A stretch of 64,000 nt of DNA from Thiotrichaceae bacterium UBA5859 (GCA_002432655.1 DJFZ01000055.1:1643-65642), one strand, 5' to 3'. Counted from the first letter of the stretch, positions 33,014 through 62,430 are shown. A program made the numbers and translations. Notes: a model not told the origin generated them from the sequence alone.

Positions 33014-34204
33014 ATGGGAACAAATCAATCACAATCAATTAACACACTTTGGCAAGATATCTTTCGACTGGCCCAACAGCTCAGTTCGGAAGAATTACTG
33101 ATATACCAAACCGCCAAACGCTACAGCGAAGAAAAGTTAATGCCACGCATTCTCGAAGCCAATCGAGAAGAGCACTTTGATGGAGCGATTATGCAAGAGA
33201 TGGGCGAACTGGGATTACTTGGATTAACGATTAAGGGCTATGGCTGTGCCGGTGCCTCCTATGTGGCTTATGGATTAGCCGCACGGGCGATCGAAGCTGT
33301 CGATAGTAGCTATCGTTCTGCTTTAAGCGTGCAATCTAGTTTGGTTATGTTTCCCATTGAGGCTTTTGGCAGCGAAAAGCAAAAGCGTCAATACTTACCC
33401 AAACTGGCGTCTGGTCATTACATAGGATGTTTTGGACTCACTGAACCCAACAGCGGATCTGATCCCTCAAGCATGCAGACCAAAGCGCAAAAAACCGAAC
33501 AAGGATATCTACTTTCAGGTCAGAAAACGTGGATAACTTCAGCACCACTTGCTGACTTATTTATCATCTGGGCAAAAGATGAGAGAGATCTAATTCGAGG
33601 ATTTTTAATAGAAAAAGACGCACCAGGATTAGTGGTACGCAGGATCAAAAATAAGTTATCCCTCAGAGCATCCTGTACCGGTGAGATTACCTTGGACAAT
33701 GTTTTTGTACCAGAAGAACAGTTACTGGGTAGTGTCACCGGTTTGAAAGGTCCATTTAGTTGTCTGAATCGTGCCCGATATGGCATTGCCTGGGGATCCT
33801 TAGGCGCAGCGGAATTCTGCTGGCAAGCAACTCGAGATTATGTGATGCAGCGCCATCAATTTGGCAAGCCGCTGGCGCATACGCAATTGATACAAAAGAA
33901 ACTCGCAGACATGCAAACTGAAATCACCATTGGATTGCAAGCCGCATTGCGGGTCGGTCGACTGATGGATGAGGATAGTTTTACACCGGAAATGATTTCT
34001 CTAATCAAGAGAAATTCCTGTGGTAAGGCACTGGCCATTGTCAGGGAAGCGAGGGACATGCATGGGGCCAACGGGGTGGCTGACGAGTACCACATCATGA
34101 GGCACATGTCGAACCTAGAGGCGGTCAATACCTATGAAGGAACCCATGACGTTCACGCATTAATTTTAGGTCGCGCGCAGACTGGGCTGAATGCCTTTTT
34201 CTAA
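33014..34204 (+). CDS. Acyl-CoA dehydrogenase, glutaryl-CoA dehydrogenase-like.
   Basis: 396 aa. It has the GCDH-like N-terminal region and the ACAD signature ([19 protein letters not shown]...). The size and motif order fit the GcdH subgroup. Confidence 0.75.
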
Positions 34205-34220
34205 TCTAAATAGAATAAGT

Positions 34221-35981
34221 TTATGCTCCTACAAAAAACCAATACAGAATCGTCAATTGACTTAATAACAGCAACAAACTGATTATTTGCCAAAAACGAA
34301 CTGGATTTCTCTCAATGAGGGGCAATCGATTTGTGTATACATATGACCTGCTTGGATGACGCAAATCATGAAGAAACTCAGACAGAGAATCATACCTATC
34401 TTTTTTCTCTATGCTCAAAGCTTTTTCTAAGGTTTTATCTAACCAGTCGGGTATCAAAGAATTAAATTCAGTACTCCGTTGATACTCCAACTGCTGATAA
34501 TCTTTTAACGTATGACATTGACTCAATTTGCCCTCGTAGGGTTTTCTTCCCGTCAACAACTCAAAAGCGATAACACCAATAGAGAAAAAATCAGACTCGA
34601 TAGTAGCGCCTGCACCCAAAAACACTTCAGGCGCGCTATACTCAGCGGTGCCTAATATTTTGTCTCTTGCAATCGGTGTATTGATTTCATCAATTCCCGC
34701 AATGTGCACTGAACCAAAATCAATGATTTTGATCTGTGCGTGATCATTGATCATTATATTGCCCGGTTTCAAATCTTGATGGATGACTTCTCGGCGATGA
34801 AACGCCCGCACACCTTTGGCAATCTGTTCAACTATGTGAATGATCTGCTGAATGTTGCTGGTCTGATTATGGGTTGCCATCCATTGTTCTAGGGTTTGAC
34901 CTTCTACCAACTCCGTTAAACTGTACATGAACTTTCGTGGTCTAATAGGTGCAACCACCTTCACCACATAGTCACTCTGTATGCGACTACCGATCCATTC
35001 CTCCATCACGAATCTTTCTATATAGGCAAGATCATCTTCATAATTCGCAGAAGGAGTTTTCATCACGTATTTATCACTGGTTGCAACATCCTCAACCACG
35101 TAGAGTTGACTACGTGAACTTGCGTGTATCTCTTGCAATATTCGAAACCCATCCAGTAACAAACCAGTTTTCAAGAAAGGCGGAAAGGGCAAATCTGCCA
35201 GGCGCTTTACCACATCATCAGCGGACTCTACCGGCAGGGAGGTGACTTTGATTATTTGACAACTAAGATTGTCATAACTACCTTGATCATAGGCTTGACG
35301 AACGATCTGTTCACACTTAGTTGTCAAATCGCCCTCTTCTTTGCTGACTATCTGTTGAATTTGTTTGGCATTTAACCAATCATGAACACCATCTGTGCTA
35401 CAAAAGAAGATATCACCCGAGCGCACGTCCAGTGCCCGATAATCCACATCCAACATTAACCCGATCCCCATAGCTCTGGCTAAATACGCTTTGCTACGAC
35501 CGATTTTAGCAACATGATCGTTTGTAAGTTGTTCCCAATCACCATCTCGTAAGCGACAAATTCGTGTATCCCCTACATGGAACAGATGTACTGTGCGTGA
35601 TTTCAATACCAATGAACTAAAGGTAGTGATGTATCCTTTATCCTCTTGAATATGATGTTGGCCTTGAGAATAAAGCCAGCGATTTAAAGCGGCCAATATC
35701 TTGTGCGCAGAGGTTTTTACCGTCCAGGAGTCAGGTGTGGAGTAGTAGTCCGATAAAAAGCTACGTACAGAAATTTCACTGGCTTCTTTGCCCTCCTCGG
35801 CACTGCTCACACCATCCGCGATAGCAACGGCGATACCTTTGGTCGTCAGCAGCGGTTCATCTGGAATCACATAGCCTAAACAATCTTCATTGAGTGCCTT
35901 TTGTCCACGGTCAGAATATTGCCCAACATGAACCTCAAGTTTGGTACTGAGATGCTCAATATCCATTTCATCACTATTCAA
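34221..35981 (-). CDS. Bifunctional PP2C phosphatase / Ser-Thr protein kinase with C-terminal transmembrane anchor.
   Basis: N-terminal PP2C motifs (VAIADGVSSAEEG..., CSTDGVHDW). Central Hanks kinase motifs (HRREVIHQDLKPGNIMIND, DFGSV, GTAEYSAPE). A C-terminal hydrophobic helix. It lies 17 bp downstream of narK on the same strand. Confidence 0.8.
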   Translation of the reverse strand: MNSDEMDIEHLSTKLEVHVGQYSDRGQKALNEDCLGYVIPDEPLLTTKGIAVAIADGVSSAEEGKEASEISVRSFLSDYYSTPDSWTVKTSAHKILAALNRWLYSQGQHHIQEDKGYITTFSSLVLKSRTVHLFHVGDTRICRLRDGDWEQLTNDHVAKIGRSKAYLARAMGIGLMLDVDYRALDVRSGDIFFCSTDGVHDWLNAKQIQQIVSKEEGDLTTKCEQIVRQAYDQGSYDNLSCQIIKVTSLPVESADDVVKRLADLPFPPFLKTGLLLDGFRILQEIHASSRSQLYVVEDVATSDKYVMKTPSANYEDDLAYIERFVMEEWIGSRIQSDYVVKVVAPIRPRKFMYSLTELVEGQTLEQWMATHNQTSNIQQIIHIVEQIAKGVRAFHRREVIHQDLKPGNIMINDHAQIKIIDFGSVHIAGIDEINTPIARDKILGTAEYSAPEVFLGAGATIESDFFSIGVIAFELLTGRKPYEGKLSQCHTLKDYQQLEYQRSTEFNSLIPDWLDKTLEKALSIEKKDRYDSLSEFLHDLRHPSRSYVYTNRLPLIERNPVRFWQIISLLLLLSQLTILYWFFVGA

Positions 35982-35998
35982 TGCGGCGTTCGGAGCAG

Positions 35999-37471
35999 CT
36001 ATCCTACATCGATAAGTTGCACACTACCATCGGGTAATATTTCCGCCATTTTACCCCGCGGCTCTACGAGGAACTGTACCGCAACCAATACCAAGATGGC
36101 TGATCCGCCTATAATCAAGAAAAAGGTACTGTAATCCACGAAGGTTAGTACTGTGAGAAAAATGACTGCACCCACATTTCCGTACGCACCCACCATGCCC
36201 GCGATTTGACCCGTCATACGTCTTTTTACTAGGGGTACTACCGCAAACACCGCACCTTCACCTGCTTGCACGAAAAAAGAACAGCTCATGGTGGCTAATA
36301 CGGCAAGAAAAATAGGCCATTGACTGTTTATTTGACTTAGAATTAGATAGCCAAATGATAGACCTAGTATTAAAAATGACAAACTTTTTCGTCGACCAAA
36401 GGTATCACTGAACCAGCCGCCGCTCGGGCGCGCCACTAAATTCATAAAGGCGAATCCAGAAGCCAACAAGCCAGCTTTTACGGGATTAAGATCGGTATAG
36501 GTTTCAAGAAAGAAGAGCGGCAACATGGATACCACTGCCAATTCGGAGCCAAAAGTTACTAAGTAAGCCAAGTCCAAGATGGCCACCTGCTTGAATTGGT
36601 AACGGTGTATCTCTTCTACAGGGCGTTTAAATACATCTATGTTGACGCGATAAATGTTATACACCTGGAAAATAAACAAAGCCACTAGTGCCAAATAAAT
36701 TGCGTAGCATATCTCAATTGCAAGCAAGCCAATATTTGAAGGAGATAATTTCCAAGTTAACACGGAAAGCGCCAGATACATGGGCAAATTCATAAAAATA
36801 TAGAAATAAAAATCTTTCACGCTCGACACTTCCAACCCACCATGTTTTTTTGGTTTAAAATAGGTTGAGCCTTTTGGCGTGTCTCTAGCCACTAAAAAGT
36901 AGACAATTCCATATACAAAGATAATTGCGGCAGTACAATAAAGTGCGTATCGCCAACCTTCATCCCCACCAAACCAATACGCAATTGCTGGCAAACTCAT
37001 TGCCGCCGCTGCCGAACCAAAGTTTCCCCAACCCCCATAGATACCTTCAGCAATCCCAACTTGTTTGGCGGGAAACCACTCCCCTACCATGCGAATACCA
37101 ATCACAAATCCGGCACCCGACACACCTAATAAAAATCGGAACAACGCAAGTTGATCAAAACTTTGTGCGCTGGCAAAACCCACACAGATAACTGAAGAGA
37201 GGATTAATAAGGTTGAATAGACCCGTCGCGGTCCATAGAGATCTACCATAATGCCCACGACAATACGTGCCGGTATCGTCAAGGCCACATTCAGGATCAT
37301 TAAACCCTTCACTTGTTCGCTACTCAATTGCAGCGACTCCTGGATCAAAACCAACAAGGGCGCATGATTGAACCAAACCACAAAAGAGAGAAAAAACGCA
37401 AACCAAGTGATGTGAAGCGTTCTGATTTTAGGATCGTTTACAGCCAATAGATTTAAATTTTCGGTACTCAT
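35999..37471 (-). CDS. narK: MFS nitrate/nitrite transporter (NarK/NNP family).
   Basis: 12-TM MFS with NNP-type glycine-rich motifs. It is divergent from nirBD-narGHJI. The start was set to ATG at 37471 (AAGGA RBS); the track ORF begins at TTG 37486. Confidence 0.75.
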
Positions 37472-37899
37472 GAATGTTCCTTGCAAGACAGCTTGTCTCC
37501 ACAGAGACGCAAAAGTTGCGCGCCTCAGAGCAATCCATATGCCATGCTGTGTACGTTGAAGGAGCGCAATGCTTTACCAACCAGTTAACAATAACTTAGC
37601 CGTCCTTTAGGATGAGAACTGCATACGCTTTGAACGGCATTGATGATTTTATAGTCAAGACTGTGCACCAGAATGTGGCCTCACGGGAATTGCCTCCCTC
37701 ATTTGGTGCTTAGAAACGCAGGTCAATTTTCCCTCAGGATTGTTTATTGTTTATATTCAATTGCTTATCATATCGATTCTAGTGGCATAGCTATTGCTGA
37801 GAGCCAGCGGAAACGAATGACCGTGGATCGCAAACAACCTGGGTCAACAAAACTGATGAACATCATCTTTTCAATATCAACTGAATAAACGGGGTACAC
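37472..37899. promoter_or_regulatory. Divergent narK / nirB intergenic control region with inverted repeats.
   Basis: 428 bp of non-coding sequence between divergent starts. Inverted repeats AGACA-gct-TGTCT (37486-37498) and TGATG-aa-CATCA (about 37853-37866) are present. No canonical FNR box was found. Confidence 0.35.
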
Positions 37900-40446
37900 A
37901 TGCGTGACGCGCATCGACCGAACATCATCGTCATCGGCAACGGCATGGTCGGCCAAAAATTACTGGAAAATCTAGTAGAAGCTGAAGTACATAAGCAGTT
38001 TAATATTCTGACTTTTTCTGAGGAACCTCGCCCAGCGTACGATAGAGTGGCGCTAAGTTCTTTTTTTTCAGGCAACCGTGCAGAGGATTTGTCTCTCGTA
38101 CCCGAGGGATTCTTTCAACAGAACGGTATCGGCTTACAACTTTCAGAAGCCGTCACTGAAATTGATAGGGCTAAAAAAGAAGTGTGTACCGAGGCCGGGA
38201 ATCGCTATACCTACGAGCTATTGATTCTTGCCACCGGATCTTATCCATTCGTGCCACCGTTACCGGGGCGTGATCGAAAACACTGCTATGTCTATCGCAC
38301 GATCGAAGATCTTGAAGCAATTGCTGCTTGCGGCAAACAGAGTCAGATCGGCGTCGTGGTTGGCGGCGGCCTATTGGGTTTAGAAGCCGCTAAGGCACTA
38401 AAAGACATGGATCTAGAAACCCATGTGGTAGAGTTCGCACCCAGACTCATGGCGGTACAGGTAGATGAAATCGGTGGACAGTTATTACGCAGTAAAATTG
38501 AAGCCTTAGGCGTACAGGTCCACACACAGAAAAACTCAAAAGAAATTGTGGATGGTAATCAACATCTGCATCGCATTAATTTCGTTGACGGCGAACATCT
38601 TGAAACCGACATGATTGTGTTTTCCGCGGGGATCCGACCTCAGGATGCATTGGCGCGCCAATGCGACTTAGCTTTGGGAGAGCGAGGCGGTATCGTCATC
38701 AATGACCATTGCCAAACCTCCGATACCTCTATTTACGCCATTGGTGAATGCGCCTTATGGCAAAATCGTATTTTTGGGCTGGTGGCACCCGGCTATCAAA
38801 TGGCAAAGGTAGCAGCAGAACATATCGCCGGCGGATCGGCTGCTTTTACTGGTGCAGATATGAGTACCAAATTAAAGCTATTGGGCGTGGATGTGGCCAG
38901 CGTTGGCGACGCTCACGCTCGTACGGAAGGTGCGCGTTGTTTCAATTATTTGGATGAAATTAAAGGTGTCTACAAAAAGGTGGTAGTAGACGCTAAACGC
39001 GAACGTCTGCTCGGTGCCGTGCTAGTAGGAGATGCTGAGGAATACGGTACACTCCTACAAATGACACTGAATGACATGCCGTTGCCGGAAAATGTCGATT
39101 CTTTGATTTTGCCACACTATGATGGCAGCGGCATGACAGGGCTGGGCGTCGACGCTCTGCCGGAATCCGCGCAAATATGCTCCTGTAACAACGTCAGTAA
39201 AGGAGATATCTGCCAGGCAGTGGGTTCGGGCGCAACCACACTTGCGGCCATTAAAGAGGCCACCAAAGCCTCTACTACCTGCGGTGGCTGCACCGCTCTA
39301 GTCGGTCAAGTATTAAATGCGGAATTACTCAAATTAGGTGTCGAGGTAAACACAGATATCTGTGAGCACTTCCCTCACACTCGTCAGGAGTTGTATCACA
39401 TAGTACGTATCAACAACATCCAAACATTCGCTGAATTGATAGAAAAACACGGCAAAGGTAGGGGCTGTGATATCTGCAAACCCGCGGTAGCTTCTATTCT
39501 GGCTTCTTGTTGGAATCAATATATTCTAAAACCGGAACATAGCCAGTTACAGGATACAAACGATAGATTCTTAGCCAATATGCAAAAAAACGGTACCTAC
39601 TCGGTAGTGCCTCGTGTGCCAGGTGGCGAAATCACCCCTGACAAACTCATTGCCATTGGTGAAGTGGCAAAAAAATACGACTTGTATACGAAAATAACCG
39701 GTGGTCAAAGAATAGATTTGTTCGGTGCCAGGCTCGAGCAGTTGCCCGCCATATGGGAAGAACTTATCGCCGCTGGATTTGAAAGCGGTCATGCCTATGG
39801 TAAAGCAATGCGTACGGTGAAATCCTGTGTAGGCAGTACTTGGTGTCGGTATGGCGTGCAAGACAGCGTAAGCATGGCGATTCAAATCGAAAATCGTTAT
39901 CGCGGCGTGCGCTCTCCCCATAAGTTAAAGCTAGCCGTATCCGGATGTACTCGAGAATGCGCTGAAGCACAGAGTAAAGATGTCGGTGTGATCGCAACTG
40001 AAAAAGGGTGGAATCTCTATGTCTGCGGCAACGGCGGCATGAAGCCGAGACATGCCGATTTACTGGCATCGGATCTCGACGATCAGACTTTGATCCAGTA
40101 CATCGATCGCTTTTTGATGTTTTATATACGCACGGCCGATCGTCTACAGCGCACTTCCGTCTGGTTAGACAATCTAGAAGGCGGTATTGACTATGTCCGA
40201 CAGGTAGTCTGTGAAGATTCTTTATCCATCGCCACAGAATTAGAAAACGACATGCAGTCTCTAATAGATAGCTATGTGTGTGAATGGCGCTACACTGTCG
40301 AAAATGAAGAAGAACGTAAGCGATTCTCTCATTTTGTAAATAGTTCTGAACCGGATAGCGGTGTTCAATTCGTCAAAGAGCGCGGGCAAATTCGCCCGGC
40401 TTCGACAGATGAGCTCCAGCAAATCCCTACGCAGGCAATAAATTAG
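37900..40446 (+). CDS. nirB: NAD(P)H-dependent nitrite reductase large subunit.
   Basis: 848 aa. N-terminal FAD/NAD Rossmann domain (IIVIGNGMVG), BFD-like [2Fe-2S] region and sirohaem/4Fe-4S Cys cluster (CVGSTWCRYG..., SGCTRECAEA). Confidence 0.9.
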   Translation: MRDAHRPNIIVIGNGMVGQKLLENLVEAEVHKQFNILTFSEEPRPAYDRVALSSFFSGNRAEDLSLVPEGFFQQNGIGLQLSEAVTEIDRAKKEVCTEAGNRYTYELLILATGSYPFVPPLPGRDRKHCYVYRTIEDLEAIAACGKQSQIGVVVGGGLLGLEAAKALKDMDLETHVVEFAPRLMAVQVDEIGGQLLRSKIEALGVQVHTQKNSKEIVDGNQHLHRINFVDGEHLETDMIVFSAGIRPQDALARQCDLALGERGGIVINDHCQTSDTSIYAIGECALWQNRIFGLVAPGYQMAKVAAEHIAGGSAAFTGADMSTKLKLLGVDVASVGDAHARTEGARCFNYLDEIKGVYKKVVVDAKRERLLGAVLVGDAEEYGTLLQMTLNDMPLPENVDSLILPHYDGSGMTGLGVDALPESAQICSCNNVSKGDICQAVGSGATTLAAIKEATKASTTCGGCTALVGQVLNAELLKLGVEVNTDICEHFPHTRQELYHIVRINNIQTFAELIEKHGKGRGCDICKPAVASILASCWNQYILKPEHSQLQDTNDRFLANMQKNGTYSVVPRVPGGEITPDKLIAIGEVAKKYDLYTKITGGQRIDLFGARLEQLPAIWEELIAAGFESGHAYGKAMRTVKSCVGSTWCRYGVQDSVSMAIQIENRYRGVRSPHKLKLAVSGCTRECAEAQSKDVGVIATEKGWNLYVCGNGGMKPRHADLLASDLDDQTLIQYIDRFLMFYIRTADRLQRTSVWLDNLEGGIDYVRQVVCEDSLSIATELENDMQSLIDSYVCEWRYTVENEEERKRFSHFVNSSEPDSGVQFVKERGQIRPASTDELQQIPTQAIN

Positions 40447-40558
40447 AGCCTGTTCCTGTTTGAATATTGCGCTGACTATTTTTGACCAACGGCACTCAAC
40501 AGCATGTATTTTGTTGAATGAATAGTTTGGCGTTAACCAATTTAGGAGCCGTCAACCC

Positions 40559-40900
40559 ATGACATTAAAGTGGACTCAAGTTTGTCTTCTTGAAGAGATT
40601 TTACCGAACACCGGTTGTTGCGCGTTGTATAATCAAATGCAGATCGCAATATTTCGGGTAGATAGTTCGGAACAACTATATGCGGTACAAAATTATGATC
40701 CCCTTGGCGAAGCGAATGTCTTATCGCGAGGCATTGTAGGCGATGTCAATGGAGAATTAGTTGTGGCTTCACCCCTGTATAAACATCACTACTCATTAAA
40801 AACAGGAAAATGTTTGGAAGACGAAACGGTTCAAATTCAAACCTATCCTATCCGAGTGGAAAATGGCCGAGTGGAACTCGGTACGGTTTCTTCACATTAA
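40559..40900 (+). CDS. nirD: Nitrite reductase small subunit (Rieske-like).
   Basis: 113 aa. NirD-like beta-sandwich pattern, directly downstream of nirB. Confidence 0.85.
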   Translation: MTLKWTQVCLLEEILPNTGCCALYNQMQIAIFRVDSSEQLYAVQNYDPLGEANVLSRGIVGDVNGELVVASPLYKHHYSLKTGKCLEDETVQIQTYPIRVENGRVELGTVSSH

Positions 40901-40921
40901 TACACTACTTAGGCAGTTTAA

Positions 40922-43900
40922 ATGAGTCATTTCCTAGATAGATTACAGTTTTTCAAAAAAAAACAAGGACAATTTGCGGACGGCCATGGTGAGATCAGCA
41001 ATGAAGATCGCTCCTGGGAAGATGGTTATCGTCAACGCTGGCAGCACGATAAAATTGTCCGCTCTACCCATGGTGTCAATTGCACCGGATCCTGTAGCTG
41101 GAAAATATACGTTAAAAACGGCCTAGTGACTTGGGAGACTCAACAGACGGATTATCCGCGTACTCGCCCAGACTTACCCAACCACGAACCGAGAGGATGT
41201 CCCCGGGGTGCCAGCTATTCTTGGTACATATATAGTGCTAATCGACTCAAATATCCATTGATTCGCAAAAAGCTGGTGCAATTATGGCGGGCCGCTAGGC
41301 AAACTCACGATCCCGTAGATGCCTGGGAATCTATCGTAGAAGACAGCGAGAAAGCGGCAACCTATAAGCAACAGAGAGGTTTAGGCGGTTTTGTCCGGGC
41401 AACTTGGGATGAAGTGAATGAAATCATCGCCGCTGCCAATACCTACACAATTAAACAGTACGGCCCTGATCGAGTATGTGGTTTTTCACCGATACCTGCC
41501 ATGTCGATGGTGTCCTACGCAGCCGGTACTCGCTATTTGTCCTTAATTGGCGGTACTTGTTTGAGCTTTTATGACTGGTATTGCGATTTACCCCCTAGCT
41601 CTCCTCAAGTGTGGGGAGAACAAACCGATGTGCCCGAATCTGCCGATTGGTATAACTCCAATTTTTTGATCTTATGGGGTTCAAATGTGCCGCAAACTCG
41701 AACACCGGATGCACATTTCTATGCCGAAGTACGTTACAAAGGCACCAAAAGCGTGGTCATTACTCCCGACTTTTCAGAGGCATCAAAGTTTGCCGACCTC
41801 TGGCTTGCGCCTAAACAGGGAACGGATGCTGCGCTCGCAATGGCCTTTGGGCATGTGATCTTAAAAGAGTTTCACGTAGACAATCCGAGTCCATACTTCT
41901 TGAATTATTGTCGTCAATATACGGATATGCCGCTGTTGGTCAAATTGGTGCCTCACGAAGACGGCGCCTTTAAAGCAGATCGTTTTCTTCGCGCTTCAGA
42001 TTTTAACGATGCGTTGGGTGAGGAGAACAACCCCGAGTGGAAAACAGTGGGCTATGACGAACATTCAAAGCAATTTTGTGTGCCCACTGGATCAATAGGT
42101 TTTCGCTGGGGGGAGCAAGGTAAATGGAATATTGAAGAGAAGGACGCCACTGGTCAAGCCACCCAGTTATCTCTGACTCTACTCGACCAACGAGATGAGG
42201 TGGCTTCCGTTGCATTCCCCTACTTTGGCGGAAACGAACGTGAACACTTTCAACATACGGCACACAACGATGTATTGTATCGCAACATTCCTACGAAGAA
42301 AGTGACTTTGTCTACTGGCGAAGAAGTCTTAGTTGCCACTGTCTATGATCTATTATTGGCTCACTACGGTATTGATCGCGGTTTAGGTGGCGACAATGTC
42401 GCGACAAGTTACGACGATGACATTCCTTGCACACCAGCGTGGCAACATAAAATTACTGGCGTTAAATCTCAAGATGTGATCACCGTAGCCCGTCAGTTTG
42501 CCGAGACCGCCCATAAAACTAAAGGGCGCTCCATGATTATCGTGGGTGCGGGGCTGAACCACTGGTATCACAACGATATGAACTATCGCGGCTTAATAAA
42601 TATGCTGTTGATGTGCGGCTGCGTGGGCCAAACAGGCGGTGGCTGGTCGCATTATGTGGGCCAGGAAAAACTTCGACCACAAACCGGATGGACAGCGCTC
42701 GCGTTCGCTCTCGATTGGAATCGTCCACCCAGACAGATGAATGGCACCTCTTTTTTCTATAATCATACCAGTCAATGGCGTTACGAAAAGGTGGGTATTG
42801 AAGAGATCCTTTCGCCGTTAGCGGATAAAGAAAAATATTCCGGTAATGTTTTAGACTATAACATTCGTGCCGAGCGTATGGGTTGGTTACCAAGCGCACC
42901 ACAACTGAATACTAATCCGTTGAATTTGGCTGCTCGAGCGGAAGAGAATAACTTATCAGTAGAAGAGCACCTATGTACCGAACTGAAGTCTGAACAGATC
43001 TCAATGGCTTGTGAAGATCCGGAAGATCCACAAAATTTTCCCCGTAATTTATTTGTCTGGCGTTCTAATATTTTGGGTTCAAGTGGTAAAGGTCACGAAT
43101 ATTTCTTACATCACTTGTTAGGTACCAAACATGGACTGTTGGGCAAAGAACTGGGTGACGACACGAACTTAAAACCAGAAGAGGTAAATTGGCATGAGCA
43201 AGGTGCCACCGGGAAGCTGGATCTGTTGGTCACTTTAGACTTTCGTATGTCTACCACCTGCCTCTATTCAGACATCGTGTTACCCACAGCCAGTTGGTAT
43301 GAAAAGGATGATTTAAACACCTCCGACATGCACCCTTTTATTCATCCATTATCTGCAGCAGTAGATCCAGTATGGGAATCGAGAACTGACTGGGATATCT
43401 ACAAAGGAATAGCGAACAAATTTTCTGAAGTCTGTGTCGGCCACTTAGGCAAAGAAAAAGATGTGGTATTGACCCCGCTGATGCACGATTCCCCTGGTGA
43501 AATTGCCCAGCCCTTTGAGGTAAAAGATTGGAAAAAAGGAGATTGCGATCCCATTCCTGGGAAAACCATGCCGCAGATTAGCGTCATCGAACGCGACTAT
43601 CCAAACACTTATAAAAAGTTCACCTCTCTTGGACCTTTGATGGAGTCCTTAGGCAACGGTGGCAAAGGCATTCATTGGGATACAAAAACGGAAGTAGAAT
43701 TCCTCGGCAAATTGAATCATCCCGTCTTAGATGAGGGTGTTTCTAAAGGACGGCCACAAATTGAAAGCGCCATTGACGCCGCTGAGGTAATCTTGTCTTT
43801 AGCACCAGAAACCAATGGTCAAGTCGCCGTAAAAGCCTGGGAATCCCTAGGTAAAATCACCGGCCGCCAACACACTCATTTGGCAGAACCAAAACAAGAC

Positions 43901-44674
43901 GAAAAAATACGTTTTCGAGACATACAAGCGCAACCGAGAAAAATTATCTCTTCCCCCATCTGGAGTGGGCTCGAAGATGAACATGTCAGTTACAATGCAG
44001 GATACACAAACGTGCATGAGCTGATCCCCTGGCGCACCCTAACCGGAAGGCAACAGTTCTATTTGGATCACCAATGGATATTGGCTTTTGGTGAAGGCTT
44101 TTGCCAATATCGTCCACCAATAGATACCAAGACTGTGAACCCGATATTAAATAAGACGCCTAATGGCAATCGAGAAATTGCGTTAAATTGGATTACGCCT
44201 CACCAAAAATGGGGTATCCACAGCACCTATACTGAAAACCTGCTGATGCTTACTCTTTCAAGAGGTGGTCCCATTATTTGGTTGAGTGAGGTGGATGCAG
44301 CAAAAGTCGACATTGCTGATAATGATTGGGTAGAAGTGTTTAACGTCAACGGGGCGTTAACCGCGCGCGCTGTGGTCAGCCAACGGGTAAATGAAGGCAT
44401 GACGATGATGTATCACGCCCAGGAACGTATCGTCAATAATCCAGGCGCTGAAACCACCGGCACCAGAGGCGGTATTCACAACTCGGTCACTAGAGTGGTA
44501 CTCAAACCCACCCACATGATAGGCGCCTACGCGCAGTTCAGTTATGGTTTTAACTATTACGGTACTGTCGGTTCTAATCGAGATGAATTTGTTATTGTGA
44601 GAAAAATGAATGAAATTGATTGGCTCGACGGTGAAAGTCAACCCTACAAGCAAACAGACGGAGCAGTAGTTTAA
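40922..44674 (+). CDS. narG: Respiratory nitrate reductase alpha subunit.
   Basis: 1250 aa. NarG N-terminal HGVNCTGSCSW Fe-S motif and Mo-bisMGD domains along the full length. It starts 21 bp after the nirD stop. Confidence 0.95.
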   Translation: MSHFLDRLQFFKKKQGQFADGHGEISNEDRSWEDGYRQRWQHDKIVRSTHGVNCTGSCSWKIYVKNGLVTWETQQTDYPRTRPDLPNHEPRGCPRGASYSWYIYSANRLKYPLIRKKLVQLWRAARQTHDPVDAWESIVEDSEKAATYKQQRGLGGFVRATWDEVNEIIAAANTYTIKQYGPDRVCGFSPIPAMSMVSYAAGTRYLSLIGGTCLSFYDWYCDLPPSSPQVWGEQTDVPESADWYNSNFLILWGSNVPQTRTPDAHFYAEVRYKGTKSVVITPDFSEASKFADLWLAPKQGTDAALAMAFGHVILKEFHVDNPSPYFLNYCRQYTDMPLLVKLVPHEDGAFKADRFLRASDFNDALGEENNPEWKTVGYDEHSKQFCVPTGSIGFRWGEQGKWNIEEKDATGQATQLSLTLLDQRDEVASVAFPYFGGNEREHFQHTAHNDVLYRNIPTKKVTLSTGEEVLVATVYDLLLAHYGIDRGLGGDNVATSYDDDIPCTPAWQHKITGVKSQDVITVARQFAETAHKTKGRSMIIVGAGLNHWYHNDMNYRGLINMLLMCGCVGQTGGGWSHYVGQEKLRPQTGWTALAFALDWNRPPRQMNGTSFFYNHTSQWRYEKVGIEEILSPLADKEKYSGNVLDYNIRAERMGWLPSAPQLNTNPLNLAARAEENNLSVEEHLCTELKSEQISMACEDPEDPQNFPRNLFVWRSNILGSSGKGHEYFLHHLLGTKHGLLGKELGDDTNLKPEEVNWHEQGATGKLDLLVTLDFRMSTTCLYSDIVLPTASWYEKDDLNTSDMHPFIHPLSAAVDPVWESRTDWDIYKGIANKFSEVCVGHLGKEKDVVLTPLMHDSPGEIAQPFEVKDWKKGDCDPIPGKTMPQISVIERDYPNTYKKFTSLGPLMESLGNGGKGIHWDTKTEVEFLGKLNHPVLDEGVSKGRPQIESAIDAAEVILSLAPETNGQVAVKAWESLGKITGRQHTHLAEPKQDEKIRFRDIQAQPRKIISSPIWSGLEDEHVSYNAGYTNVHELIPWRTLTGRQQFYLDHQWILAFGEGFCQYRPPIDTKTVNPILNKTPNGNREIALNWITPHQKWGIHSTYTENLLMLTLSRGGPIIWLSEVDAAKVDIADNDWVEVFNVNGALTARAVVSQRVNEGMTMMYHAQERIVNNPGAETTGTRGGIHNSVTRVVLKPTHMIGAYAQFSYGFNYYGTVGSNRDEFVIVRKMNEIDWLDGESQPYKQTDGAVV

Positions 44675-46261
44675 ATGAAAATACGCGCACAGATCGGTAT
44701 GGTATTAAATTTAGACAAATGTATTGGTTGTCATACCTGCTCTATTACCTGTAAGAACGTTTGGACTTCCCGAGAAGGCACCGAATACGCTTGGTTTAAC
44801 AACGTCGAAACTAAACCCGGTGTCGGCTATCCAAAAGAGTGGGAGAATCAGGATCGGTGGAAAGGTGGTTGGAAGCTGAAAGGCAATGGTGAATTGCAAC
44901 CTAAAATTGGTGGCAAATTTAGGGTGCTGGCCAATATTTTTGCCAATCCAGACTTACCAGAAATCGACGACTATTACGAACCATTCGACTTTGATTACCA
45001 ACACCTACATGAAGCGCCAGAGGGCAAACACCAACCCACTGCACGACCTCGCTCACTGATCTCCGGTGAACGCATGGAAAAAATAGAATGGGGGCCAAAC
45101 TGGGAAGAAATTCTGGGTACAGAATTCAAGAAAAGATCAAAAGACAAAAATTTTGACCAAGTACAAAAGGAGATTTACGGTCAATTTGAGAACACATTCA
45201 TGATGTACTTACCGCGTCTATGTGAGCACTGTTTAAATCCTGCTTGTGTAGCCACTTGCCCGTCCGGTGCAATTTACAAACGAGAAGAAGACGGCATTGT
45301 ACTTATCGACCAAGATAAGTGTCGTGGTTGGCGCATGTGCGTGAGTGGATGTCCTTATAAAAAAATCTACTATAACTGGAAATCAGGCAAGTCGGAAAAA
45401 TGTATCTTTTGCTATCCTCGTATAGAGGTGGGACAACCTACTGTTTGCTCCGAAACCTGTGTGGGTCGTATTCGCTATCTCGGTGTGTTGCTCTATGATG
45501 CAGATCGAATTGCGGAAGTGGCTGCCACACCCAACGATCAAGATCTCTATAAAAAACAGCTAGAGATATTCTTAGATCCGAATGATCCAGACATCATTGC
45601 GCAGGCCAGAAAAGATGGCGTTCCAGACAATTGGTTGGAAGCAGCGCAGCGTTCACCAGTTTATATGTTAGCAATGGACTGGCAACTTGCCCTACCCTTA
45701 CACCCGGAATACCGCACCTTGCCCATGGTTTGGTACGTGCCTCCCCTGAGTCCAATTCAGAGTGCTGCGGACAGCGGCGCCATCGGCATGAATGGCATCA
45801 TTCCAGATGTCGACAGTTTGCGGATCCCACTAAAATATCTTGCCAACATGCTCACCGCAGGAGACGAAGCACCAGTGTTACTGGCCCTAAAGAGACTCCT
45901 CGCCATGCGCGCCTATAAGCGAAGCGAAGAAGTGGATGGAGAAGTCAATCATAAAGTTTTGGATGAAGTTAACCTCACTCGCGAACAGGTTGAAAGCATG
46001 TACCGCTATTTGGCTATCGCCAATTATGAAGATAGGTTTGTCATCCCAACCGGCCACCGAGAATATGCAGTGGAGGCGTTCCCAGAAAAATCGGGTTGTG
46101 GCTTCAGCTTCGGTAATGGTTGCTCCGATGGGAACTCAAACCTAGGTCTATTTGGTAATAATCGCGCCAATTCAACCACAGTGAAGTCCTTGTCTGGATC
46201 TGAGTCTGCCACCGAAGGCAATCCATTAGAGATCCGTCAATTATTCTCCTCCCGACGCTAA
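44675..46261 (+). CDS. narH: Respiratory nitrate reductase beta subunit.
   Basis: Four Cys clusters (CIGCHTCSITC, CEHCLNPACVATCPSGA, CRGWRMCVSGCPY, CIFCYPR). Its ATG abuts the narG stop. Confidence 0.95.
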   Translation: MKIRAQIGMVLNLDKCIGCHTCSITCKNVWTSREGTEYAWFNNVETKPGVGYPKEWENQDRWKGGWKLKGNGELQPKIGGKFRVLANIFANPDLPEIDDYYEPFDFDYQHLHEAPEGKHQPTARPRSLISGERMEKIEWGPNWEEILGTEFKKRSKDKNFDQVQKEIYGQFENTFMMYLPRLCEHCLNPACVATCPSGAIYKREEDGIVLIDQDKCRGWRMCVSGCPYKKIYYNWKSGKSEKCIFCYPRIEVGQPTVCSETCVGRIRYLGVLLYDADRIAEVAATPNDQDLYKKQLEIFLDPNDPDIIAQARKDGVPDNWLEAAQRSPVYMLAMDWQLALPLHPEYRTLPMVWYVPPLSPIQSAADSGAIGMNGIIPDVDSLRIPLKYLANMLTAGDEAPVLLALKRLLAMRAYKRSEEVDGEVNHKVLDEVNLTREQVESMYRYLAIANYEDRFVIPTGHREYAVEAFPEKSGCGFSFGNGCSDGNSNLGLFGNNRANSTTVKSLSGSESATEGNPLEIRQLFSSRR

Positions 46262-46271
46262 GAGGTGATGA

Positions 46272-46958
46272 ATGAAAAACCTTAAGCTCATCTCTATTCT
46301 GCTCTCCTATCCAGAGCCTAGTTGGTTCTGTGAATTCGATAACATGATTGAATACATCAATGCAGATCAAGAGTTCACCCCGGAGCAGAAGCAAAAACTA
46401 TTAGAGTTTATTGAGTTACTCTCTTCTGAAGATGTTCTGGACTCTCAGGAGCGTTATGTGGCTACCTTTGATAGAGGCCGCTCTGTATCTATGTTGCTGT
46501 TCGAACATATCCACGGCGAATCAAGAGATAGAGGCCAAGCCATGGTGGATTTGCTGCACACTTACGAATCACGCGGATTTGAACTGAGCGTATCAGAACT
46601 ACCCGATCACTTAACTGTTTTTTTAGAATTTCTATCCCAATGTGCTCCCGAGGAATCTGTTCTATGGCTTTCTGAGGTTTCGAATATATTGGTTCTCATT
46701 TGTTCTAGACTCTACGAACGGCAGAACCCTTATTCAGATCTTTTCAAAATACTCTGCGAGCTCGGCGGAATAACTGAGTTTGATAACCAAACGCTGAACC
46801 AGGTGAAATTGGAGCCAAGGGATGATACACCCGATGCTCTCGACAAGGTTTGGGAAGAAGAGGCGGTACGTTTTGTTGGTAATAATGTCATGGGGGGCGT
46901 ACCCGCTTCTTCTGACCAACAATCTATAAACGACCTAACGCTTAAATCTATATCATAA
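46272..46958 (+). CDS. narJ: Nitrate reductase molybdenum cofactor assembly chaperone.
   Basis: 228-aa acidic protein at the canonical position between narH and narI. TorD/NarJ-like helical pattern. Confidence 0.8.
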   Translation: MKNLKLISILLSYPEPSWFCEFDNMIEYINADQEFTPEQKQKLLEFIELLSSEDVLDSQERYVATFDRGRSVSMLLFEHIHGESRDRGQAMVDLLHTYESRGFELSVSELPDHLTVFLEFLSQCAPEESVLWLSEVSNILVLICSRLYERQNPYSDLFKILCELGGITEFDNQTLNQVKLEPRDDTPDALDKVWEEEAVRFVGNNVMGGVPASSDQQSINDLTLKSIS

Positions 46959-46970
46959 AGGAGCCAAACC

Positions 46971-47663
46971 ATGGCATGGTTGAATCATTTCATTCACGAA
47001 ATTCTTTTTGGGCTTTTCCCTTATTTCGCTCTGACGGTTATGGTACTAGGTTCAATCATAAGATTTGACCGCGAACAATATACTTGGCGAAGCGGATCCA
47101 GTCAGATGTTGCGCAATAAATCATTTAGGTTGGCAAGTAACCTATTTCATTTCGGCATCTTATTTCTCATGCTAGGTCATTTTGTCGGACTCTTAACGCC
47201 ACCCAAAATCTATCATGCATTTGGATTATCGACAGCGGACAAACAGATCCTTGCTATGAGCGCTGGAGGGGCTGCTGGCATTGTTTGTTTTGTCGGACTA
47301 ACCATGTTGTTACATAGACGGCTCTACGATCCCAGGATTAGAGCAACGAGTTCATTTAGCGATATTTTGATTCTTCTACTCATTTATGCGCAGTTGATCT
47401 TGGGTCTTTTTTCAATTGTTGTTTCCGCGTTTCATATGGATGGTACACAGATGGTATTGCTGGCAGAGTGGGCCCAACGAATTGTCAGTTTCAGATCTGA
47501 TGCCGCCGATCAACTCCTACACGTGAATTGGGTATATAAGTTACATGTGTTTCTCGGACTCATTATCATCTTAGTATTTCCTTTCACACGATTGATACAC
47601 ATCATCAGTGCCCCGATATGGTATCTAGGCAGAAGTTATCAGATTGTGAGAACCAGAAGGTAA
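46971..47663 (+). CDS. narI: Respiratory nitrate reductase gamma subunit (dihaem cytochrome b).
   Basis: 230 aa with five TM helices and conserved haem-ligand His positions. Confidence 0.85.
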   Translation: MAWLNHFIHEILFGLFPYFALTVMVLGSIIRFDREQYTWRSGSSQMLRNKSFRLASNLFHFGILFLMLGHFVGLLTPPKIYHAFGLSTADKQILAMSAGGAAGIVCFVGLTMLLHRRLYDPRIRATSSFSDILILLLIYAQLILGLFSIVVSAFHMDGTQMVLLAEWAQRIVSFRSDAADQLLHVNWVYKLHVFLGLIIILVFPFTRLIHIISAPIWYLGRSYQIVRTRR

Positions 47664-47667
47664 GCAT

Positions 47668-48507
47668 ATGTCCAATCCCATCGAAATCAAAATATCAGAG
47701 CCACTACATACCCAGAGCCCAGCTGAATCTGTTGATACTGTTGTTAAAGTCAATGGGCAAACCATCAGCGAAGAGACCATTGCTCGGGAAATGCAATATC
47801 ACCCAGCAGACAATCAAGAGCAAGCATATTTTCTGGCCACCCAAGCGTTGGTGATCCAAGAGGTTCTCTGTCAACGTGCTGACTCTCTATTCGTCAATCA
47901 AAAAACCAAGTTAACTTTAAATACAGACAAAAAAATCGAAGCTGTGCTAGAAGAGGAAGTAGCAGTACCTACCCCTTCTGAGCCAGAACTCAGGCGGTAT
48001 TATTCTCAGAATGAAGACAAATTTAGAACCGGCGATTTGTTGGAAGTCAGCCATATCTTGTTGGCAGCCGCACCAGAAGATGCCGTCATGCGACAACAAC
48101 TGAAAGAAAAGGCGTATCTACTCATTGAACAATTAGTTAAACAACCCAAGAAATTTTCTAAATTGGCGAAAACCTATTCCGCCTGCCCTTCCAACAATAC
48201 GGGCGGCAGTCTTGGACAAATTAGCAAAGGTCAAACCGTTGTGGAATTTGAAAAAGCCTTACAAACCTTGCCTGAAGGACTTTCACCGCACCCAATTGAA
48301 TCTCGTTACGGCTTTCATATAATTCGTATAGACAGAAGAGTAGAAGGTAAATTGTTGCCATTTGAGTTGGCGCGAGATCGCATACATCAATACATGTTTG
48401 AACAGGTACAAAGACGCGCCATCAGTCAATACATTTCTCTATTATTAGCAGAGGCAGAAATTGAAGGCTTTGACATCAATACGCCTTCTAGTCCTCTGGT
48501 CCAGTAG
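47668..48507 (+). CDS. PpiC/parvulin-type peptidyl-prolyl cis-trans isomerase linked to the nar operon.
   Basis: C-terminal parvulin domain (SHILLAAAPED..., GFHIIRIDRR). It starts 4 bp after narI. A comparable ppiC-type gene follows narI in Pseudomonas. Confidence 0.75.
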   Translation: MSNPIEIKISEPLHTQSPAESVDTVVKVNGQTISEETIAREMQYHPADNQEQAYFLATQALVIQEVLCQRADSLFVNQKTKLTLNTDKKIEAVLEEEVAVPTPSEPELRRYYSQNEDKFRTGDLLEVSHILLAAAPEDAVMRQQLKEKAYLLIEQLVKQPKKFSKLAKTYSACPSNNTGGSLGQISKGQTVVEFEKALQTLPEGLSPHPIESRYGFHIIRIDRRVEGKLLPFELARDRIHQYMFEQVQRRAISQYISLLLAEAEIEGFDINTPSSPLVQ

Positions 48508-48509
48508 AA

Positions 48510-48541
48510 AAAAATAGCCACTCAACTAGAGTGGCTATCCG
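48510..48541 (-). terminator. Hairpin terminator, minus-strand oriented and possibly bidirectional. It closes both the nar operon and the convergent 484-aa gene.
   Basis: tagccactc-aacta-gagtggcta stem preceded on the plus strand by A7, which gives a T-run on the minus strand. Confidence 0.45.
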
Positions 48542-48567
48542 ATGGCCAGATGATGCTATCAATCTCT

Positions 48568-50022
48568 CTAAATGTTTCGCACACTCACCTTAGGCAGATT
48601 TTCGGTTTCTTTTTCTTTAAACTCTCCTGCCCCCATACCCAATTGATCAGGGAAGAAGAACTGCACATCTAGATCAATTTCTTGAAAGTCTTTAGGTAGT
48701 TCGTAGACATCGAAACCTGCCCTGGGATACGCACCTGGAAAATTTTCAAATTTCATTTCATCATTCGGATCATCTACATATAGTAGTTTAACGCCCACAG
48801 GAAAGGTCTCTGGTATATTGATTCTGGCAAATACGTCCCAACCGTAAGGACTAGATAACCATAGCCAAGAACGTTCACGATCGATGTCTAAATTCTTTTC
48901 AAAATCACTTAGTTTCCCGTCGACAATGCCCCAGGCGTTAACATCCGGGGAAATGGCAGAATTAAAACGTGCACCGGTCTGCTCGTTAAAATCTAATGCA
49001 ATATAGATGTGAGGCTCCACCAGAAAACGAGTCAAAATATCTGCTCCGGGGATATTAATTCGCGCCTTAAACCCAAGCATTTGATCAAAAATATTCATCT
49101 GTGCACGAATTTTAAATACAGGCACTTTGGCAACCACCACAGTCAATTTAATGATAACGTTGGTTTTTACGGGCCCGCTCACAGCGCCTACCGGCACAGC
49201 TTTAATATCTTCAAAAGTGTTGAGATTAACTCTGGGCGCGAATCTCGTTAATACGCCGGTATCTATTTCTGCAAACACAGAATCCAATACTCTAGCGCCG
49301 GCCATGGGTCCAATCAAAGGATAAAAATCTTCGAAATTGAGAAAATTTTTGGTATCAGTATCAAATCCGTAAAAGGTGGTTTTAGCAGCGGAAGTTTCGA
49401 AATCGTAAGTCACATAGCTGACTTCGGAACGTTGAGAAGACCCCTTCACAATGTATATGTATCTCTTATTACCGTCCCGCTCTAATTCTACTTCTTTGAC
49501 AATATCTAAACCGGTTTCTCCAGCCGTGGAGAGGTGCTCGCCGGTATCACGGTACATAAACACCAATTGATCGTTCTTATCTAAAATGCCTAATGTGCCG
49601 TCTATCTTGCCTTCACCTTCTAAATAAACCCAACCCTTAGTATCGTATTCATCAAATTGAAAGGGAATGGGGATCACTTTCCCATCTCGAATGGTCACTA
49701 CAGACAATTGCTCTAGTGATTCACCTAATAAATCTCCCAATTCTTCTCCCCGTAACTCAACTGGATATAAATAGGTAAAGTGGCTAAACCCCATTTCTGC
49801 GATTGCACTGGAAAGTTGTTCTGGAGAGAGTTGCGTCATTAATTCGCTATTCTTAGCGAGATAAGTTGGATCTTTCTTGTATTCTTTTAATAAAGATTGA
49901 AACTGTTCATCGGGCAAGTACTCAAATTTTGCTTGAATGCCCGGCGAGATGAGAAATACAGATAAAGAAAAAAACCAAGCATAACGACTTGCAAAAATTG
50001 ATTTAGATATTTTTTTTCTCAT
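48568..50022 (-). CDS. Hypothetical secreted protein, 484 aa. Possibly a DUF1329/LolA-like beta-rich protein.
   Basis: N-terminal signal peptide. Beta-rich composition with aromatic residues at alternating positions. No catalytic motif. Confidence 0.45.
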   Translation of the reverse strand: MRKKISKSIFASRYAWFFSLSVFLISPGIQAKFEYLPDEQFQSLLKEYKKDPTYLAKNSELMTQLSPEQLSSAIAEMGFSHFTYLYPVELRGEELGDLLGESLEQLSVVTIRDGKVIPIPFQFDEYDTKGWVYLEGEGKIDGTLGILDKNDQLVFMYRDTGEHLSTAGETGLDIVKEVELERDGNKRYIYIVKGSSQRSEVSYVTYDFETSAAKTTFYGFDTDTKNFLNFEDFYPLIGPMAGARVLDSVFAEIDTGVLTRFAPRVNLNTFEDIKAVPVGAVSGPVKTNVIIKLTVVVAKVPVFKIRAQMNIFDQMLGFKARINIPGADILTRFLVEPHIYIALDFNEQTGARFNSAISPDVNAWGIVDGKLSDFEKNLDIDRERSWLWLSSPYGWDVFARINIPETFPVGVKLLYVDDPNDEMKFENFPGAYPRAGFDVYELPKDFQEIDLDVQFFFPDQLGMGAGEFKEKETENLPKVSVRNI

Positions 50023-50278
50023 TTTTGGCCATCCTCAAAATTAATAATTGACATTAGTGACGATGCATCTTTAGCTACAGAATAAAAGGTCCATAGTCAA
50101 TATTGGACTGTTTATTCCCTACTAATTAGTCTGCTAATAGACTACTGCAATTTTTTTATTTAGAACTACTATTTATTTTTGATTCAATTCAACAGGCGAA
50201 AATTCTACGCATGTCACGCTAAAATCGCCAACATTTGTATTTATTGAACGTTAAACAAAAGCGGCCGTTGGACCATAC

Positions 50279-62395: not shown

Positions 62396-62430
62396 ATCTT
62401 TCTGTTAAGTACATTAGGAGTGTTGTTGAA

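Follow-up and report, generated by a model that had tools for sequence, protein, structure and literature searches.

Nitrate reductase genes narGHJI in the Nas position of a sigma-54-associated nirBD gene string from a Thiotrichaceae bacterium, and their possible role in nitrate assimilation

We analysed a stretch of 64,000 nucleotides (nt) from Thiotrichaceae bacterium UBA5859 (GCA_002432655.1, DJFZ01000055.1:1643-65642), below called the window, in which the nitrite reductase genes nirB and nirD are followed by narGHJI, encoding a membrane-bound nitrate reductase, and by a ppiC gene, with a narK-type transporter gene in divergent orientation. With moderate confidence we read this locus as a nitrogen-regulated nas-type operon, in which the quinol-dependent NarGHJI-PpiC replaces the soluble Nas enzyme for nitrate assimilation; a respiratory benefit alongside assimilation is possible. 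What would be new is a sigma-54 operon of nas type whose Nas slot is taken by Nar; its elements individually have precedents. The literature that we searched gave no description of a sigma-54-driven nirBD-narGHJI operon, which is not proof of absence.

Open reading frames (ORFs) were identified with NCBIfam equivalog models at their curated cut-offs and with Pfam domains (Table 1). The ORF map showed nirB, nirD, narG, narH, narJ, narI and the PpiC-type gene as one plus-strand string, and all products identified by NCBIfam (NarK-family, NirB, NirD, NarG, NarH, NarJ and NarI) scored above the curated cut-offs. The Pfam domains of NirB (Pyr_redox_2, Fer2_BFD, NIR_SIR) comprise the flavin/NAD, BFD [2Fe-2S] and siroheme/[4Fe-4S] domains, which together with the Rieske-like NirD identify a NirBD nitrite reductase. 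NarG is full length, with residues 2-1236 aligned to positions 1-1235 of TIGR01580 and without an N-terminal export extension, and displayed the Pfam domains Nitr_red_alph_N (PF14710), Molybdopterin (PF00384) and Molydop_binding (PF01568), that is, the N-terminal FS0 and the molybdenum-bis(molybdopterin guanine dinucleotide) (Mo-bisMGD) domains. Judged by sequence, NarGHJI is of the cytoplasm-facing membrane-bound type (nNar), with predicted quinol-dependent activity. A PpiC-type gene also lies 3' of narI in nearly all related nar loci. The start of narK is most likely the ATG at 37472 (490 amino acids (aa), as called in L001) and not the TTG at 37486. The gene identities, gene order and tight spacing proposed in an earlier sequence-only reading of this stretch were borne out by the NCBIfam and Pfam matches and by reading of the junctions, and its divergence of the string from narK agrees with the ORF map (narK on the minus strand, 413-bp gap). 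That reading had not included the PP2C/Ser-Thr kinase gene downstream of narK.

The gaps within the string measure 112 nt (nirB-nirD), 21 nt (nirD-narG), 0 nt (narG-narH), 10 nt (narH-narJ), 12 nt (narJ-narI) and 4 nt (narI-ppiC). The TAA of narG directly abuts the ATG of narH, and the 21-nt gap between nirD and narG contains the ribosome-binding region only. The exact NirD sequence is present on 11 public contigs, the sources of which include oil-contaminated beach-sand metagenomes from Pensacola Beach (PRJNA260285) and the metagenome-assembled genome (MAG) GCA_003490045.1. In every listed contig reaching beyond nirD, narG begins 21 nt past it, and these contigs represent at least five independent assemblies. 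In another MAG labelled Thiotrichaceae (L009), about 90% identical, the whole block, from the kinase gene to the convergent unknown gene behind ppiC, is found in the same order with 70-96% aa identity across the block and 86-95% within the string, including the nirD-narG junction. Since this junction recurs in at least five independent assemblies and in L009, the string is not an assembly artefact. The G+C content at third codon positions (GC3) is similar in nirB (0.464) and narG (0.455) and thus gives no hint that foreign DNA was inserted recently; a recent horizontal insertion of nar was rejected, as neither GC nor GC3 showed a discontinuity.

To place the string among its relatives, NirD was used in a scan of one genome per species, which gave 27 loci. 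Only in L009 is nirD followed by narG. The next-closest NirD sequences come from genomes including Porticoccaceae, Alcanivorax and other Gammaproteobacteria, and in L011, L012, L014, L015, L020 and L021 (NirD 50-60% identical) nirD is followed by a Nas-type reductase of 880-930 aa. Among NCBIfam models this molybdoenzyme scores best against the generic Fdh-alpha model and next against assimilatory NasC and NasA. L011, which contains Nas, has the same divergent pair of sigma-54 elements as the window, and in L012 a kinase gene directly follows the transporter gene. The transporter of the window is 64% identical to that of the L012 nas cluster versus 26% to a respiratory NarK1; it had no PDB match to NarK/NarU at 1e-5, and no NarK2-type antiporter is present at the locus. 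A Nas-type reductase was found nowhere in the 64-kb window. Because relatives of the L011/L012 type match otherwise and Nas is absent from these 64 kb, we regard the cluster in the window as a nas cluster except that narGHJI-ppiC occupies the Nas position. A metagenome scan with NirD revealed relatives of about 50% identity (one truncated match, L051, of 65%), none of them with narG, and so supplied no lineage of intermediate distance.

Two further features of related clusters were observed. Homologues of the PP2C/Ser-Thr kinase fusion adjoin the nas-cluster nitrate transporter in L010, L012 and L022, a pairing that suggests post-translational control of nitrate uptake. A gene for a PhzF-family isomerase, without obvious link to nitrite reduction, lies directly 3' of nirD in two unrelated lineages (L010 10382-11299; L052 6964-7884).

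The 413-bp region between narK and nirB revealed two sigma-54 -24/-12 elements, both of the form TGGCAT-N5-TTGCT and each correctly oriented for its unit (Table 1). The pattern TGGCAY-N5-TTGCW has three matches in the window versus 0.18 expected. In an alignment with L009 both elements fall into perfectly conserved islands, with flanks of only about 50% identity; the element facing nirB lies inside an island of 19 nt identical in L009. A -24/-12 promoter element of the TGGCAC-N5-TTGCW type, as in a sigma-54/NtrC nas operon, is present in front of nirB. The third exact match (27850-27865, plus strand) lies 67 nt upstream of an ORF (27932-28543) for a 203-aa protein with a PEP-CTERM sorting motif, and all three elements precede correctly oriented genes. 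Genes of the PEP-CTERM class are sigma-54 dependent, and on this ground all three matches are plausibly real promoters.

Other regulatory signals were searched for at the same places. No FNR/ANR box (TTGAT-N4-ATCAA, at most one mismatch) precedes nirB or narG in the window or in L009. Matches with two mismatches were rejected as FNR boxes; they number 81 versus 55 by chance over the whole window, and the intergenic ones are not conserved in L009. The flanks in the window contain no narXL, no NarK1/NarK2 pair, no fnr/dnr and no moa genes. NasR or NasS/NasT was not recognised among the scanned window ORFs of at least 150 aa, a scan that left out a few ORFs (e.g. 14531-15052) and the smaller ones. 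An antitermination leader of the NasR/NasT type was likewise rejected: the 107-nt nirB leader folds like its shuffles, in the window and in L009, and no ANTAR or NasR gene was seen among the scanned ORFs. Searched against Rfam with gathering thresholds, the window as a whole gave no match, so no molybdenum cofactor (Moco) riboswitch, and the window contains no tRNAs.

According to the sequence-only reading, nar and nirBD usually form separate transcription units, which is correct for E. coli (PMC8139620), and their union here would couple nitrate respiration to nitrite detoxification. The latter is not supported as stated. The conserved sigma-54 elements are the only recognisable promoter signals, FNR box, narXL, fnr and moa are lacking, the transporter is of the nas type, and narGHJI stands in the Nas position; this wiring points to nitrogen assimilation. 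A related view holds that the string is an operon like those for the dissimilatory reduction of nitrate to ammonium (DNRA), working under oxygen limitation, in which Nar would serve energy conservation and NirBD would rid the cell of nitrite by detoxifying it or fermenting it to ammonium, while NO and N2O are avoided. NarGHI is indeed a bona fide respiratory-type enzyme, in methanotrophic mussel symbionts (PMC10652631) and E. coli (PMC8139620) the combination of Nar and NirBD has been interpreted as DNRA, tight linkage of the genes would match the fluxes, and the oiled beach sand habitat has oxic-anoxic gradients. We nevertheless consider a DNRA-like operon somewhat unlikely, given that the locus, unlike canonical nar loci, has no FNR/ANR boxes, narXL, dnr/fnr or moa, that a NarK2-type antiporter is missing, and that sigma-54 promoters are combined with a nas-cluster architecture holding narGHJI in the Nas slot. 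It is also compatible with the nas-type operon that we favour, and both may coexist.

A comparison from the side of NarG extended this picture. After the L009 lineage (92%), the nearest NarG sequences are 77-79% identical and belong, where named, to Methylococcales MAGs; in a neighbour-joining tree of NarG the window and P0001 are sister to this Methylococcales-type clade. The nar gene neighbourhoods were inspected in eleven lineages. P0016, P0020 and P0021 (NarG 75%) display the canonical arrangement of narXL, narK1, narK2, narGHJI, ppiC, carbonic anhydrase, moaA, a Crp/Fnr regulator, moaB and moeA. The abundant lineage P0003 (L052-L054) has narK on the minus strand, a LysR gene, a cytochrome c peroxidase gene, nirB-nirD-phzF-narGHJI-ppiC and then a Nas-like reductase of 733 aa, and downstream of narGHJI-ppiC in P0004 lie genes for a NasB-like reductase and a Nas-type enzyme. 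The other lineages inspected have no nir or nas neighbours. Linkage of nar to assimilation genes is recurrent in this clade, not universal, and the direct abutment of nirD and narG is specific to the lineage of the window and L009. As to the ancestry of the nirBD-nar linkage, NirB (64%) and NirD (52%) of P0003 are no closer to those of the window than the Alcanivorax or Porticoccaceae sequences.

Promoter signals were sought upstream of the leading gene in every nar-containing string. Canonical loci have FNR boxes before narK1 and narG, exact in L061 and L062 and with one mismatch in L065, and no sigma-54 element. The Methylococcales-type loci showed no FNR box; sigma-54 elements are exact in L057, L063 and L064 and have one mismatch in L052 and L059, and L055 and L060 of the same clade have neither signal. 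The element of L064 lies 38 nt before the narG ATG, those of L064 and L059 both within about 110 nt of the narG start, that of L057 about 520 nt upstream of narG, and that of L063 in front of the ORF preceding narG. Within 250 bp upstream of the sigma-54 elements of these related loci, the NtrC core GCAC-N7-GTGC occurs four times exactly (0.014 expected) and eight times with at most one mismatch (0.40 expected), counts that none of 2000 shuffles reached. L052 has three such NtrC-type sites, at -120 to -182, and L059 and L064 have one each at about -70. We tentatively suggest that the NarG clade of this lineage and its Methylococcales-affiliated sisters swapped FNR/NarXL for sigma-54/NtrC control, so that in these gammaproteobacteria, oxidisers of hydrocarbons and methane, Nar would be primarily a nitrogen-starvation enzyme, energy-conserving and sparing NAD(P)H, with Nas displaced in the lineage of the window; this generalisation is rather less secure than the reading of the locus itself.

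Several details of these loci were recorded in passing. In the P0004/P0006 lineage the region between the exact sigma-54 element and narG, a long leader, is about 92% conserved across two metagenome contigs (L057 7463-8000; L066 1-371). Right after narGHJI-ppiC in L052 (15639-19753), the gene for the 733-aa Nas/NapA-like molybdoenzyme is followed by one for a fused DmsB-like Fe-S/DmsC-like membrane protein; as the partner of a Nas-like catalytic subunit, such a membrane anchor is unusual. L055 (1-7444) contains a second, divergent nar-like cluster (NarG 46%) with a hemerythrin gene, in tandem upstream of a 79%-identical narGHJI-ppiC.

In Methylomonas sp. DH-1 (PMC12799797) and Pseudomonas (PMC12830290), nirBD is a direct target of NtrC, which activates it together with RpoN. 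For the full NtrC palindrome the window gave only matches with three mismatches, at chance frequency. At the aligned position L009 has an NtrC-type site with one mismatch at -82. As the window keeps only the half sites GCACCA and TTGGTGC (Table 1), NtrC is proposed for it by homology. The string could instead respond to a different enhancer-binding protein, for example a NorR-like sensor of NO, nitrite or nitrate, and form a nitrosative-stress or nitrite-detoxification module. The want of a good NtrC palindrome in the window, the want of a linked activator gene, and the detoxifying roles of NirBD in several bacteria (PMC12830290) would fit. We think this very improbable, with NtrC-core palindromes strongly enriched upstream of the related sigma-54 elements, a one-mismatch site aligned in L009, and an architecture that is that of the Nas-containing nas clusters.

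In accordance with the sequence-only reading, no plausible terminator was seen between nirD and narG. Terminator-like sites in the region 34000-50500 number 14 versus 15.2 expected, and sigma-70-like consensus matches in the same region 25 versus 29.6 expected, at or below chance. Neither a sigma-54 element (at most one mismatch) nor an FNR box was found in the nirB-nirD gap or within nirD, in the window or in L009. Indirect support for a single nirBD-narGHJI-ppiC transcript comes from the 21-nt gap, from the fact that this gap is conserved, and from the want of motifs for a promoter or terminator.

A small hairpin lies at the 3' end of nirD (Table 1). The two-tier structure spans 40858-40895, and L009 keeps its pairing through one-sided changes (G.U to G-C and C-G to U.G); in this comparison of two sequences it could be an attenuator, a processing site, a stabiliser or a plain coding constraint. 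In a further reading the locus comprises two adjacent, separately controlled units: nirBD would depend on the sigma-54 promoter and narGHJI-ppiC on a promoter, not recognised by the scans, in nirD or in the nirB-nirD gap, with the hairpin attenuating between them. Such an arrangement has parallels, for nirR-sirA-nirB-nirD-sirB and narGHJI are adjacent and are described as separate operons in Staphylococcus (PMC5620643), a phzF gene and a 116-nt gap part nirD from narG in P0003, and the sister loci L064 and L059 carry their sigma-54 element close to narG. Two units are unlikely all the same, as the 21-nt gap holds the ribosome-binding region only, the scans of the gap and of nirD gave no sigma-54 element or FNR box, sigma-70-like and terminator-like matches stay at chance, and the U-rich stretch behind the hairpin is predicted to pair with an upstream GGAAA.

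The nas-type operon that we favour would then work as follows. Two back-to-back sigma-54 promoters in the 413-bp region would drive a leftward unit of the NasA-like NarK transporter and the PP2C/Ser-Thr kinase, and a rightward unit transcribed as one nirB-nirD-narG-narH-narJ-narI-ppiC message of about 10.7 kb. Both units would answer to an enhancer-binding activator, most probably phosphorylated NtrC (NtrC~P) formed under nitrogen limitation, which would switch them on. NarK would bring nitrate in, and NarGHI, drawing its electrons from the quinol pool, would reduce it to nitrite on the cytoplasmic side, a route that would add to the proton-motive force and spend no NAD(P)H on the nitrate step. 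In the same compartment NirBD would reduce nitrite to ammonium with NAD(P)H, feeding glutamine synthetase and glutamate synthase (GS/GOGAT); because the product of Nar is the substrate of NirBD, co-transcription would prevent nitrite build-up. Under hypoxia these enzymes could in addition serve as an electron outlet, a use that the visible promoter signals do not encode.

Several points weigh against this reading. From the 64 kb examined we infer that the genes are co-transcribed, that NtrC is their activator, that their role is assimilatory and that the rest of the genome lacks Nas, and we likewise infer the start of transcription; a Nas, Nap or NarB enzyme may be encoded elsewhere in the genome. 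Some uncoupling of the nirBD half from the nar half could come from the conserved hairpin in the nirD 3' end, and an internal sigma-70 promoter inside nirD is possible despite the consensus scans. The window's best match to the NtrC palindrome TGCACC-N5-GGTGCA has two to three mismatches, which is chance level, and the activator could be a sigma-54 enhancer-binding protein other than NtrC. The 64-kb window contains no ntrBC or rpoN gene, no nasST or nasR gene was recognised among its scanned ORFs, and the nirB leader is without significant structure (z 0.37 in the window, -0.25 in L009). Finally, the sister lineage L057 has nas genes beside nar, so that Nar is not always a substitute for Nas.

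The sequence-only reading had also connected the locus with a copper membrane monooxygenase (CuMMO) at the end of the window. This operon (60618-63762, plus strand) has the order C-A-B, with A and C subunits that fall short of the NCBIfam cut-offs for AmoA/AmoC and for particulate methane monooxygenase/ammonia monooxygenase (pMMO/AMO). One A subunit with 94% identity lies on the same contig as the nar cluster of L009; the nearest others, 47-80% identical, come from Pseudomonadales MAGs, Solimonas, Nevskia, Sinimarinibacterium, Hydrogenophaga and Cycloclasticus. The CuMMOs of the Pseudomonadales, Solimonas, Nevskia, Sinimarinibacterium and Cycloclasticus taxa are what we take to be a hydrocarbon-oxidising group. 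The connection to the nar locus proved weak, as the A subunit groups with these hydrocarbon-oxidising enzymes and not with those of ammonia or methane oxidisers. By its sequence the enzyme is probably a monooxygenase for short-chain hydrocarbons rather than an AMO or pMMO, and the host probably a short-chain hydrocarbon oxidiser living on a nitrogen-poor substrate; a premium on nitrate assimilation would fit such a host.

The main consequence concerns the interpretation of narG in genomes and metagenomes, where it commonly serves as the marker gene for denitrification or dissimilatory nitrate reduction. In this locus narG probably feeds nitrogen into biomass rather than marking denitrification. 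If this is true here and in the related Methylococcales-type clade, annotations or metagenome counts based on narG overstate the potential for nitrogen loss (denitrification/DNRA), and annotations overlook a way of assimilating nitrate that saves NAD(P)H and contributes proton-motive force. Nar-based assimilation could favour monooxygenase-dependent hydrocarbon degraders on nitrogen-poor, carbon-rich substrates such as spilled oil. One enzyme family with either FNR boxes or sigma-54/NtrC sites would further offer a natural test case for a respiratory module re-plumbed by promoter swap and operon fusion.

The coordinates of the locus are collected in Table 1. Between the convergent ppiC and the following ORF lies a strong hairpin, which on either strand folds better than any shuffle. 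The sequence-only reading had placed the terminator of the nar string here; the hairpin exists as described, but its T-run is on the minus strand only, and the nar strand has a preceding A-run without a U tract. For this reason it is primarily the terminator of the convergent ORF (48568-50022, minus strand). This ORF encodes 484 aa without Pfam or NCBIfam match, is 85% conserved and syntenic in L009, and has a strong intrinsic terminator of its own. An 11-mer around the start codon, AGTTTAAATGA, is common to the nirD-narG (40912-40926) and narG-narH (44665-44679) junctions and reads AATTTAAATGA at the nirD-narG junction of L009; the repeat of AGTTTAAATGA may be a shared translation-initiation context or chance. 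Elsewhere in the window we noted an isolated, weak NosL-like ORF (13878-14351, plus strand; 29 bits), unlinked to other nos genes, and a gene for a 503-aa protein (23726-25237, plus strand) with only the FMN/'Glu_synthase' domain of GltB, unlinked to other glt genes.

Table 1. Features of the nirBD-narGHJI locus, with positions counted from the first nucleotide of the window (MFS, major facilitator superfamily; MFE, minimum free energy)
Feature	Position	Strand	Evidence
PP2C phosphatase/Ser-Thr kinase fusion gene, 586 aa, downstream of narK in the divergent unit	34221..35981	-	Pfam PP2C_2, Pkinase
NarK/NasA-family MFS nitrate transporter	35999..37472 (longest ORF to 37486, 495 aa)	-	TIGR00886 338.5 bits (cut-off 311.7)
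Sigma-54 -24/-12 element TGGCATATGGATTGCT, facing narK, 57 nt before the probable narK ATG	37529..37544	-	Exact match
Candidate enhancer, NtrC-like half sites GCACCA ... TTGGTGC between the promoters	37665..37711	.	Half sites conserved in window and L009; putative
Sigma-54 -24/-12 element TGGCATAGCTATTGCT, facing nirB, ~100 nt before the ATG	37783..37798	+	Exact match
nirB, large subunit of NAD(P)H siroheme nitrite reductase	37900..40446	+	NF011565 1361.8 bits (cut-off 883); TIGR02374 1139 bits
nirD, small Rieske-like subunit	40559..40900	+	NF007066 135.6 bits (cut-off 135); TIGR02378 128.3 bits
Small hairpin in the nirD 3' end, possible attenuator or stabiliser, uncertain	40866..40882	+	Terminator-like scan; MFE -12.4 kcal/mol, z -2.3
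narG, catalytic Mo-bisMGD subunit of membrane-bound nitrate reductase	40922..44674	+	TIGR01580 2282 bits (cut-off 1084)
narH, Fe-S subunit	44675..46261	+	TIGR01660 1004 bits (cut-off 524)
narJ, assembly chaperone	46272..46958	+	TIGR00684 121 bits (cut-off 59)
narI, di-haem b membrane anchor/quinol oxidase subunit	46971..47663	+	TIGR00351 259.7 bits (cut-off 105.6)
PpiC-type (NifM-like) peptidyl-prolyl isomerase, last gene of the string	47668..48507	+	Pfam Rotamase, Rotamase_3
Strong hairpin between the convergent ppiC and orf484	48512..48540	-	Fold -16 kcal/mol (+), -19.7 kcal/mol (-)

Among known systems, the closest in plan are the gammaproteobacterial nas clusters (L011, L012, L014/L015, L020/L021), which share with the window a linked or divergent NasA-type transporter gene, a Ser/Thr kinase gene, nirBD, sigma-54 elements and a reductase gene after nirD. 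They differ in that a single soluble Nas protein follows nirD where the window has NarGHJI and PpiC; compared with nas clusters, the window also has no NasS/NasT or NasR gene recognised among the scanned ORFs and no structured leader. In Pseudomonas the nas genes are arranged as nasA-kinase-nirBD-nasC. The canonical Pseudomonas-type narXL-narK1K2-narGHJI-ppiC loci (L061, L062, L065) resemble the window in NarG (75%), NarH (81-83%) and the order narGHJI-ppiC. Only they have FNR boxes before narK1 and narG, narXL, two NarK paralogues, moaA/moaB/moeA and a Crp/Fnr regulator, whereas nirBD and sigma-54 promoters are found in the window and nirBD is missing from the canonical loci.

In M. tuberculosis nar and nirBD are unlinked, and nirBD is under GlnR. 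The window differs by having one gene string behind a sigma-54 promoter and by belonging to a gammaproteobacterium. The proposed physiology is the same: one source (PMC7816997, citing Malm et al. 2009 and Sohaskey & Wayne 2003) assigns both assimilation and respiration to NarGHI of M. tuberculosis, a respiratory-type Nar that supplies nitrite to NirBD for growth on nitrate. The nir-nar-nre region of Staphylococcus, as in the window, has nirB and nirD upstream of narGHJI on the same strand (PMC5620643). This Firmicute differs in including nirR and sirA/sirB, with sirB between nirD and narG (PMC5620643), and in being described as two operons with oxygen/nitrate control by NreABC and a dissimilatory role (PMC8139620).

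The Methylococcales lineage P0003 (L052-L054) differs from the window by the PhzF-family gene and the 116-nt gap before narG, by LysR and cytochrome c peroxidase beside narK, by the Nas-like 733-aa reductase after ppiC, and by the identity of NirB (64%) and NirD (52%). It shares with the window the arrangement of narK on the minus strand and nirB-nirD-(phzF)-narGHJI-ppiC, a NarG of 79% identity, and a sigma-54 element before nirB, which is near-consensus in P0003 and accompanied there by three NtrC-type sites.

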